Positions 2,850 to 3,402 of a DNA stretch of 4,407 nt are shown one piece after another. The DNA is taken from the IMG/VR virus record IMGVR_UViG_2667527595_000022, positions 1 to 4,407 of that record; one strand, written 5' to 3'. Position numbers and translations under genes: made by a program. The stretch comes from a virus. Taxonomy: Duplodnaviria > Heunggongvirae > Uroviricota > Caudoviricetes. The notes beneath the pieces were generated by a model. It did not search any database and had not been told where the DNA came from. It worked only from the letters and a program-made list of their open reading frames with translations. Numbering within the stretch: the stretch's first letter is position 1; every line of letters begins with the position of its first letter.

Positions 2850-3044
2850 ATGACATTCATCAACCAGTTAATGCTGTACTTCTGTACGGTGGTCTGTGTG
2901 TTGTATCTTCTTTCAGGTGGATACAGGGCAGTACGCGACTTCTGGCGCAGACAGATTGACAAAAGGGCCGCTGAGAAAATCAGCGCCACTCAGTCAGCCG
3001 GAGCAAAAACAGAAGCCCCACTCATTCCGGAACAACCTTCTTAA
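2850..3044 (+). CDS. Small hypothetical membrane protein (64 aa; one N-terminal TM helix, basic cytoplasmic tail)
   Basis: ORF with a hydrophobic segment LMLYFCTVVCVLYLLSG followed by a basic stretch YRAVRDFWRRQIDKRAAEK. No clear SD upstream. Preferred over the overlapping N-terminal part of ORF 2896-3360, which is not protein-like. Confidence 0.4.
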   Translation: MTFINQLMLYFCTVVCVLYLLSGGYRAVRDFWRRQIDKRAAEKISATQSAGAKTEAPLIPEQPS

Positions 3045-3069
3045 TAACCCCTTTCAACGAGAAAATCTC

Positions 3070-3360
3070 ATGACAGATATAAAACAACTGGTCACTGCTG
3101 AGGCAGTGAAGGAAGTCATTCGCTCTGAAGAAGTCAGAAGCGTCCTGAAACAAAAACTCCGCCAGAATCTGGAAGAGCGTCTTGATGCAGAAGTGGATTC
3201 AATTCTGGATGAATTGCTTGGTGCACAGCCGGAACCATCCCCGGAACTGCTTCCGGAACCACAGGCGGAAGATGTCACCACGGAAAATGGTGATATTCAG
3301 CCGGAGTCACCGGTGACGGATATGACAGACACACAACCCGAACCGGGCACAATGCTGTAA
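3070..3360 (+). CDS. Hypothetical acidic protein (96 aa; helical N-terminus, Pro/Glu-rich low-complexity C-terminus)
   Basis: ATG at 3070 lies 25 nt after the stop of the preceding ORF with a weak SD (GAGA). The sequence is strongly acidic with PEP/PE-rich repeats (QPEPSPELLPEPQAE...QPESPV...TQPEPG). It is followed directly by a strong terminator. Function unknown. Confidence 0.5.
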   Translation: MTDIKQLVTAEAVKEVIRSEEVRSVLKQKLRQNLEERLDAEVDSILDELLGAQPEPSPELLPEPQAEDVTTENGDIQPESPVTDMTDTQPEPGTML

Positions 3361-3371
3361 CGGCGGGGCAG

Positions 3372-3402
3372 GGCCATCAGTAAAACACTGATGGCCTTTT
3401 TT
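3372..3402 (+). terminator. Rho-independent terminator
   Basis: Perfect 9-bp stem ggccatcag (3372-3380) / ctgatggcc (3388-3396), 7-nt loop, then TTTTTT (3397-3402), 12 nt after the stop at 3358-3360. Confidence 0.7.

Follow-up and report, generated by a model that had tools for sequence, protein, structure and literature searches.

In the late region of a lambdoid prophage, an esterase gene is separated from the lysis genes by two small open reading frames. The questions that they raise are whether they are real genes, whether they form an autonomous module with the hairpin that follows them, and what their products might do. The window, by which we mean the whole stretch of DNA that was analysed, comprises the first 4,407 nucleotides of IMG/VR record IMGVR_UViG_2667527595_000022, a tailed virus of the Caudoviricetes, and its features are collected in Table 1. 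Positions 1-3983 match late-region DNA of a lambdoid prophage in E. coli UPEC-245U with 99.9% identity, and phage PhiR12_3 shares 99.6% identity with the segment tested, 2700-3450. Prophage homology stops at 3983; homology to gcvP begins at 3982, on the opposite strand, and continues to the end of the window, a junction that was found in no complete E. coli genome. An initial annotation, made from the letters of the window, had described the two frames as an uncharacterised, moron-like module with its own strong terminator, and had put forward lysis timing, a membrane toxin with its neutraliser, or superinfection exclusion as functions compatible with it.

Table 1. Features of the window in order of position, with the evidence for each.
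Feature	Position	Strand	Evidence
STnc100/PasD-like small RNA	294-503		Rfam, 138 bits
EcOnc08-like small RNA, convergent, between the STnc100/PasD-like RNA and the esterase in feature order		minus
NanS-p-type sialate O-acetylesterase, with DUF1737, SASA and DUF6645 domains	735-2708	plus	Pfam
Candidate antisense small RNA gene, between esterase and DUF1378	2710-2829	minus	Alignment, conservation, fold
DUF1378 gene (ORF1), ATG start, 64 aa	2850-3044	plus	Pfam PF07125; PHROG 494 (phrog_494)
DUF826 gene (ORF2), ATG start, 96 aa	3070-3360	plus	Pfam PF05696; PHROG 311 (phrog_311)
Intrinsic terminator, immediately 5' of the holin gene	3370-3406	plus	Terminator scan, fold energy, conservation
S21-type class II holin (pinholin), first lysis gene past the terminator; dual-start motif MYQMEK	3437-3652	plus	Pfam PF04971, 5e-35
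Phage lysozyme gene, cut at the gcvP junction	3657-3983	plus	Pfam PF00959

Both reading frames belong to families that already have a name. ORF1 covers the whole DUF1378 profile (positions 1-59 of 59) with 122.6 bits (7e-36; cut-off 25), and ORF2 matches positions 1-59 of the 75 in the DUF826 profile with 87.2 bits (8e-25; cut-off 25). Membership in these Pfam families was missed by the initial annotation, which had proposed that such profile searches be run; its word 'uncharacterised' is apt with regard to function, the families being named yet functionally uncharacterised. The genes themselves are already known. RefSeq labels them DUF1378 and DUF826, thousands of genomes carry them as annotated genes, and both domains are noted between nanS-p and S, with no further study, in a survey of Stx2a phages from 2023 (PMC10462455). 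The pair is thus ordinary, already catalogued prophage cargo. No functional work, and no expression data for the two genes, were found in the literature under DUF1378, DUF826, Z1467, ECs1208-1210, L0106 or the phi24B names. Neither protein matched NCBIfam, none of the holin families in Pfam and PHROGs matches ORF1 or ORF2, and the PADLOC defence models gave no match at E up to 1 for ORF1, ORF2 or the longer frame considered below. Three K-12 proteins considered as family members were set aside, YbcW and YnfN on the basis of Pfam scans and YnfO because RefSeq labels it DUF3950.

It is possible to read the same DNA as encoding a single longer protein, from 2896 or 2956 to 3360, with ORF1 spurious. 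The frame is indeed open for 66 codons 5' of the ATG at 3070 in most alleles, and public records annotate it in this way: in phage 933W a single 148-residue protein, L0106, occupies the frame 2896-3360, and RefSeq starts DUF826 at the TTG at 2956, overlapping DUF1378. Against this stands the pattern of substitution among 60 distinct alleles of the interval, drawn from IMG/VR and phage records, for which dN/dS was calculated by the Nei-Gojobori method. Both ORFs give values of 0.20-0.38 in their own frames and more than 1.4 out of frame (1.6-2.6 over ORF1, about 1.4-1.5 over ORF2); over the bases of ORF1 the long frame has a dN/dS of 1.6-1.7, compared with 0.20 in the frame of ORF1. The upstream extension of DUF826 is broken by stops in two of 61 alleles, and the Pfam profile begins at the methionine encoded by the ATG at 3070, as do all distant homologues. 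ORF1 is intact in all 60 of the other distinct alleles (59-64 residues) and ORF2 in 58 of the 60 (81-96 residues). We would give the single long protein next to no chance. The two separate genes drawn by the initial annotation, which had named the 2896-3360 frame as the competing possibility, come through this conservation check (about 1.7 for the long frame, about 0.2 for the genes): these comparisons bear out the two-gene reading and mark the long frame as an annotation artefact, with the ATG at 3070 as the true start of DUF826. Public annotation either over-extends DUF826 or merges the two genes. In 933W the counterpart of ORF1 is an unannotated ORF 5' of L0106, and that of DUF826 is the C-terminal 90 residues of L0106, which likewise contain the helical domain and lie in the same place before S.

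The product of ORF1 is present as it had been described, a 64-residue protein with one transmembrane helix and a basic tail, by ORF scan, hydropathy and charge. Its pI is 9.2; residues 3-21 are its sole hydrophobic stretch (Kyte-Doolittle 19-residue mean 2.02), and residues 25-46 contain seven Lys or Arg and three Asp or Glu. The AlphaFold2 model is one continuous helix from residue 2 to residue 49. DUF1378 is predicted to be a single-pass inner-membrane protein, with a transmembrane segment at approximately residues 3-24, a very short N-terminus and a basic cytoplasmic helix; because of the positive-inside rule, the N-terminus would be outside and the C-terminus inside. The conserved transmembrane helix terminates in an invariant GGY, and the invariant residues of the family include L9, F11, V15, L18, L20, G23, G24, Y25 and R29. 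Among 60 related alleles the in-frame dN/dS (Nei-Gojobori) is 0.20 for the gene and 0.16 for the transmembrane segment, and this constraint exceeds the needs of a simple anchor. The cytoplasmic helix is nearly identical even where DUF826 is absent nearby. The protein in the window is 86% identical to the versions in Stx phages, which have the same position after nanS-p and belong to the same length class; compared with the typical DUF1378 protein of 59-60 residues, its tail is four residues longer.

The product of ORF2 is likewise the strongly acidic 96-residue protein that had been claimed, with a pI of 4.05 and a net charge of -15.5. Its tail, residues 53-96, has nine Pro, eleven Asp or Glu and no Lys or Arg, and contains five PE dipeptides, four of which occur as PEP. 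AlphaFold2 places helices at residues 10-17 and 20-49 with pLDDT above 90, and leaves residues 57-94 disordered. In the long helix every fourth residue is hydrophobic (V22, L26, L30, L34, L38, V42, L46 and L50), and in an alignment of 19 sequences all of these but L46 are invariant. Codons 1-52 have a dN/dS of 0.23 and the tail 0.47; the tail also differs among alleles by in-frame insertions and deletions, and that of the window is longer than in most alleles, which encode 81-90 residues. The model thus suggests a small soluble acidic protein, composed of a conserved helical domain (residues 1-52) and a variable, disordered tail rich in Pro and Glu. The cytoplasmic helices of DUF1378 and DUF826 have a low hydrophobic moment at 100 degrees and are therefore not called amphipathic. 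The DUF826 family is tiny: of the 52 cluster representatives that a full-library profile search of 1.84 billion proteins returned, all but two weak repeat-like matches were small members of this family. Searching PDB sequences with the two profiles gave nothing under E = 0.6, and a Foldseek search of the PDB and BFVD with the DUF826 model nothing under E = 3.

The phage collection has 309 records with DUF1378 and 307 with DUF826, almost all from Stx phages or other phages of E. coli and Shigella. Among 5426 complete E. coli genomes the pair is present in 1052, at 2714 places and with up to seven copies per genome. The survey of co-occurrence that the initial annotation had proposed therefore shows the pairing to be conserved, in these 1052 genomes and in approximately 307 phage records. 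The esterase is found at 8857 places in 1997 of the complete genomes, so that about 30% of esterase copies carry the pair and about 70% are without it. In every locus of the E. coli type with enough flanking sequence, the esterase lies directly 5' of DUF1378, and DUF826 starts 202-220 nt past the DUF1378 start. In lambdoid prophages an S21-type holin follows 3' of the pair; in a large clade of Mu-like prophages the cassette has baseplate and tail-fibre genes on its 5' side and com/mom on its 3' side, and the neighbourhood contains no lysis gene. Because the Mu-like cassette keeps the esterase without lysis genes, it is the esterase, and not the lysis cassette, that constantly accompanies the pair in E. 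coli, a point that the initial annotation had missed. Esterase and holin are both present in EPEC PP2 and Sakai Sp12, with the pair missing between them, and inspection of the prophage regions PP2, PP4 and PP5 of E2348/69 revealed no copy of the pair.

Each of the two genes also occurs alone. A lone DUF1378 follows Rz in the S21-type lysis cassette of phage BUCT709, where an ATGA overlaps the Rz stop, and in prophages of Cedecea and Mixta one follows a tail-fibre assembly gene, next to Dam or an acyltransferase; there is no DUF826 within 4 kb of DUF1378 in BUCT709, Cedecea or Mixta. In approximately 45 Salmonella Fels/Gifsy-like contigs a lone DUF826 has Rz/Rz1 on one side and the gene for the small terminase subunit on the other; in one Mu-like contig it comes after a tail-fibre assembly gene. 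The Salmonella proteins have 60 residues, without the long acidic tail, and the holin in these loci is of the lambda-S type, that of the E. coli loci being of the S21 type. Neither gene is tied to the esterase in other genera, where each occurs without one. Lysis genes are adjacent in the lambdoid, BUCT709 and Salmonella loci, but not in the Mu-like loci; altogether, three kinds of context are beside lysis genes and two kinds come after tail-fibre genes. Both genes thus land at the ends of late-operon modules. Natural frameshift fusions of DUF1378 and DUF826 also exist (P0149 and P0178).

Between the esterase and DUF1378 there is a further element, on the opposite strand. It has a -35 hexamer, TTGACA, at 2829-2824, from which a start near 2795 can be inferred, and a terminator with the stem CCGCCAG/CTGGCGG and T8, ending at about 2710. 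The TTGACA is the single strongly conserved motif 5' of ORF1, and the element is kept across the alleles, including the Mu-like one. There is evidence for small RNAs in the corresponding place elsewhere. PasA and PasC of EPEC are experimentally detected small RNAs that a 2026 preprint locates between esterase and holin, and the Hfq-bound EcOnc52 adjoins the esterase stop in Sakai Sp4. In an alignment with PasA, PasC and EcOnc52, the TTGACA is invariant and the terminator is shared; the sole match of PasA and PasC to the window is 16 nt of the terminator arm, 2716-2731. On this alignment, the element is a candidate counterpart of PasA, PasC and EcOnc52, in position and in part of its sequence.

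The hairpin behind DUF826 is an intrinsic (Rho-independent) terminator. Its 12-bp stem and 5-nt loop occupy 3370-3398, T6ATTT comes next, and the fold has an energy of -22.3 kcal/mol (z = -4.3 relative to shuffled sequences). The hairpin is kept in 18 of 19 distinct downstream sequences, and a U-tract follows it in all 18 but three, namely two alleles with CACTTGTTG and the Mu-like one. Two of the 12 predicted pairs show double (compensatory) changes, and there are many changes from G-C to G-U; one-sided compensatory changes occur too. The strong terminator that had been reported at 3372-3402 is therefore real and essentially correctly placed. What does not stand is its assignment to the module. 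A homologous terminator (GGCC[A/G]TCAG...CTG..GGC, then a T-run) is found just 5' of the S21-type holin in prophages without the pair, both in EPEC PP2 and Sakai Sp12, which have the esterase, and in EPEC PP4, which has neither esterase nor pair; the hairpin that comes after the pair in the Mu-like cassettes is unrelated and lacks a good T-run. Thus, we regard the terminator as a pre-holin insulator and not as the module's own. It would stop transcription that has not been modified by Q before S, R and Rz, and in this way would protect lysogens, and Q-modified polymerase from the late promoter would pass it. Antitermination by Q in lambdoid phages is established, and is the basis for this idea of read-through.

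Alternatively, a regulatory small RNA might finish at the terminator, which would then do more than insulate; such an RNA could be of the Pas type or could come from the 3' portion of the DUF826 mRNA. Hfq typically binds modules of this kind, a stem rich in G+C with a U-tract behind it, and the reported position of PasA and PasC would be compatible with such an RNA. However, comparison with the E2348/69 sequences ruled out that PasA or PasC ends here: both are encoded on the opposite strand, in alleles without the pair, and have no homology to 3300-3410. An Rfam search gave no match at 3370-3406, and no Hfq peak is listed here in Sakai Sp5, in a list that excluded sites near coding regions. 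We consider such an RNA end improbable.

How the pair is expressed bears on its description as moron-like. A simple scan found no sigma-70-like promoter on the plus strand near 2709-2849, although a weak or non-sigma-70 site could escape it, and the conserved -35 hexamer 5' of ORF1 is directed leftward only. The plus strand is free of terminators from the esterase to ORF1; a hairpin does occur just past the esterase stop, at 2723-2745, but it has a T-run on the minus strand only and therefore should not halt rightward transcription. The G+C content of ORF1 (0.487) and ORF2 (0.502), that is 0.49-0.50, equals that of the flanking esterase (0.517) and holin (0.505). Mitomycin C raises nanS-p by 1-2.4 log (PMC10462455). 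Since no plus-strand promoter, island of composition or halting hairpin was found, and since nanS-p is induced, the pair is most likely transcribed late, together with the esterase and in dependence on Q. The description as a moron is weakened accordingly in three respects, as the pair has no recognisable promoter and neither a terminator nor a base composition of its own; it does have the presence/absence polymorphism of a moron, lying between genes that are adjacent in relatives (EPEC PP2 and Sakai Sp12).

Taken jointly, the identity of the proteins, the gene model, the cassette and the logic of expression lead to an explanation that we hold with moderate confidence. The esterase, the antisense small-RNA-like element, DUF1378 and DUF826 would be one mobile NanS-p cassette, with the pair in its 3' part, that occupies late-transcribed accessory slots of lambdoid and Mu-like prophages, and late-promoter transcripts, antiterminated by Q, would read through the esterase into the pair. 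The two proteins would be dispensable accessories; about 70% of esterase copies lack them. As for what they do, our estimates derive from position and protein features. It is possible, and we suggest it tentatively, that late in the lytic cycle the pair is active on the cytoplasmic side of the inner membrane, where it would tune lysis or events at the envelope. A link to lysis is opposed by the Mu-like, Cedecea and Mixta loci and the one Mu-like contig, in which the genes come after tail-fibre genes and far from any lysis gene, by the variation in holin type between E. coli and Salmonella, and by prophages that have the same holin and do without the pair. A role in superinfection exclusion, lysogenic conversion or modulation of the host membrane seems rather unlikely, and we would say the same of an autonomous moron that is active in the lysogen, whose membrane protein, with or without the acidic partner, excludes phages or modulates a host membrane protein. 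The slots in which the genes are found are all classical cargo slots (between Q and S, after Rz, and after tail-fibre genes by Dam, acyltransferase or Mom), a hairpin follows the genes in most contexts, and the strong constraint on the transmembrane segment fits a specific helix-helix contact in the membrane; this can be added to the polymorphism between esterase and holin. To be set against it are the absence of a recognisable promoter, the ordinary composition, a terminator that belongs to the holin and the lack of a PADLOC match, and the presence of up to seven copies in one genome suggests hitch-hiking with prophages and not selection at the level of the host.

The constant position of the pair in E. 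coli right after the esterase, even in Mu-like prophages that lack lysis genes nearby, might alternatively mean that it assists the esterase, as a membrane device that targets or releases NanS-p, which has no signal peptide. We think this quite improbable in view of the many esterase copies without the pair and of the occurrence of each gene without any esterase in other genera; moreover, the C-terminal domain of the esterase ranges from 32 to 100% in identity beside a nearly constant pair, which points to mosaic linkage rather than co-adaptation. The stricter form, in which the pair is a dedicated inner-membrane device, holin-like but non-lytic, for docking or releasing NanS-p, has in our estimation a slim chance. 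There is, finally, the proposal of a membrane toxin and its neutraliser, made by the initial annotation. Worked out further, it would have DUF1378 held in check by the DUF826 protein or by an antisense RNA from 2710-2795, as part of a toxin-antitoxin or abortive-infection system. A small hydrophobic protein does adjoin an acidic partner, and a conserved, divergent, antisense small-RNA-like element does lie just upstream. Yet DUF1378 is without DUF826 in three lineages (BUCT709, Cedecea and Mixta) and DUF826 is without DUF1378 in many Salmonella prophages, and these independent occurrences argue against an obligate toxin with its neutraliser; PasA and PasC exist without DUF1378, PADLOC again has no match, and the ATGA overlap in BUCT709 suggests translational coupling to Rz. 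A toxin with its neutraliser is accordingly very improbable.

These distinctions are important because most Stx phages have the pair between their Shiga toxin/esterase cargo and their lysis genes, and about one-fifth of complete E. coli genomes contain it. If it tunes the timing of lysis, the amount of toxin and phage released per cell would be affected; if it is active in lysogens, it would be a widespread conversion factor; and if it were a device for the esterase, the de-acetylation of mucin sialic acid by STEC would not be solely dependent on lysis. What is gained here is a corrected gene model, a terminator reassigned as a pre-holin insulator, and the recognition of the esterase, the antisense element, DUF1378 and DUF826 as the stable unit.

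A close comparison is with the PasA, PasC and EcOnc52 alleles of EPEC E2348/69 and EHEC Sakai, which have the same interval, the same pre-holin terminator and the same leftward TTGACA and RNA terminator. They differ in having no DUF1378 or DUF826, in an interval of approximately 447 bp compared with 728 bp here, and in the body of the small RNA, which is not homologous to the element in the window. Amongst accessory genes, bor and lom are classical lambdoid morons, and gp15 of HK97 is a phage membrane protein of superinfection exclusion. The pair resembles these as optional cargo in a late-region slot that includes a small membrane protein; unlike morons of the bor/lom type, it has no recognisable promoter, compositional signature or terminator of its own. 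Should the lysis reading be right, the antiholins of T4 would offer another parallel. RI is tethered to the membrane and has a periplasmic domain, and RIII is a small cytoplasmic helical protein, so that in both cases a phage would encode a small membrane protein together with a small soluble helical one. No similarity of sequence or fold to RI and RIII was found, however, and the domain of DUF1378 would be cytoplasmic whereas that of RI is periplasmic. It should also be noted that the pair can lie far from lysis genes, and that the S21 holin already possesses an antiholin of its own, by virtue of its dual start.

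The prophage homology stops, and gcvP begins, at window 3982-3983, so that the lysozyme gene is cut off by this junction. Not one of 5426 complete E. coli genomes has this junction, which leaves two explanations, a chimeric assembly or a rare rearrangement. Upstream of it, the holin N-terminus, MYQMEK, has two in-frame Met codons (window 3437-3448), which is the dual-start pattern expected where an S21-type gene encodes both holin and antiholin. Most of the related alleles carry a hairpin (CTTCCG...CGGGAG) over the holin ribosome-binding site; the window sequence differs there. 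The distance from holin start to lysozyme start ranges from about 220 to 1520 nt across the prophages compared (related loci L018-L085), and extra DNA is thus often inserted between S and R.

The public annotation of DUF826 is too long at its 5' end. RefSeq begins the gene at a TTG, giving an over-extended product of 134 amino acids, and in phage 933W the region is merged into a single ORF of 148 amino acids (L0106). No coding constraint was seen in the upstream extension. Solitary DUF826 genes also occur in Salmonella, and these are preceded by the short motif TCGTAC(A/T)..., present twice within 40 nt (loci L106 and L103; 3880-4000) and conserved across two divergent prophage groups.

Two regions bordering the esterase gene carry small RNA-like elements (see the table). 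On its 5' side is a full-length match to STnc100, a family that has been linked to PasD of EPEC (2026 preprint), together with a degenerate second copy. Facing it, on the minus strand, is a region in whose Sakai Sp4 counterpart lie EcOnc08 and EcOnc21, both of them small RNAs bound by Hfq; a published northern probe matches the window at 583-613 with one mismatch. STnc100 and this minus-strand element form a convergent small RNA pair 5' of the esterase.

Coordinates of annotated features (window positions unless a related locus is named)
Feature	Position	Strand	Remarks
STnc100, second copy, degenerate	54-229	+	30 bits, under threshold; upstream of 294-503 copy
STnc100 small RNA	294-503	+	Rfam full-length match, 138 bits (gathering score 47)
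Terminator stem in EcOnc08/EcOnc21-like region	533-514	-	
EcOnc08/EcOnc21-like region	about 640-505	-	~90% identity to Sakai Sp4
Candidate antisense small RNA	about 2795-2710	-	between esterase stop and DUF1378
-35 box (TTGACA) of antisense candidate	2829-2824	-	invariant in alignment
Over-extended/merged DUF826 annotation	2956-3069; L003 8956-9360; L001 4180-4626		
gcvP (glycine cleavage P protein)	from 3982-3983	-	Pfam 2.9e-63

On the 3' side of the esterase, we regard the minus-strand element as a candidate antisense small RNA, which is also present in the Mu-like version of the esterase cassette. Its TTGACA box and its CCGCCAG/CTGGCGG stem, with a T8 terminator, align with PasA and PasC of EPEC and with EcOnc52, an Hfq-bound small RNA of Sakai Sp4.
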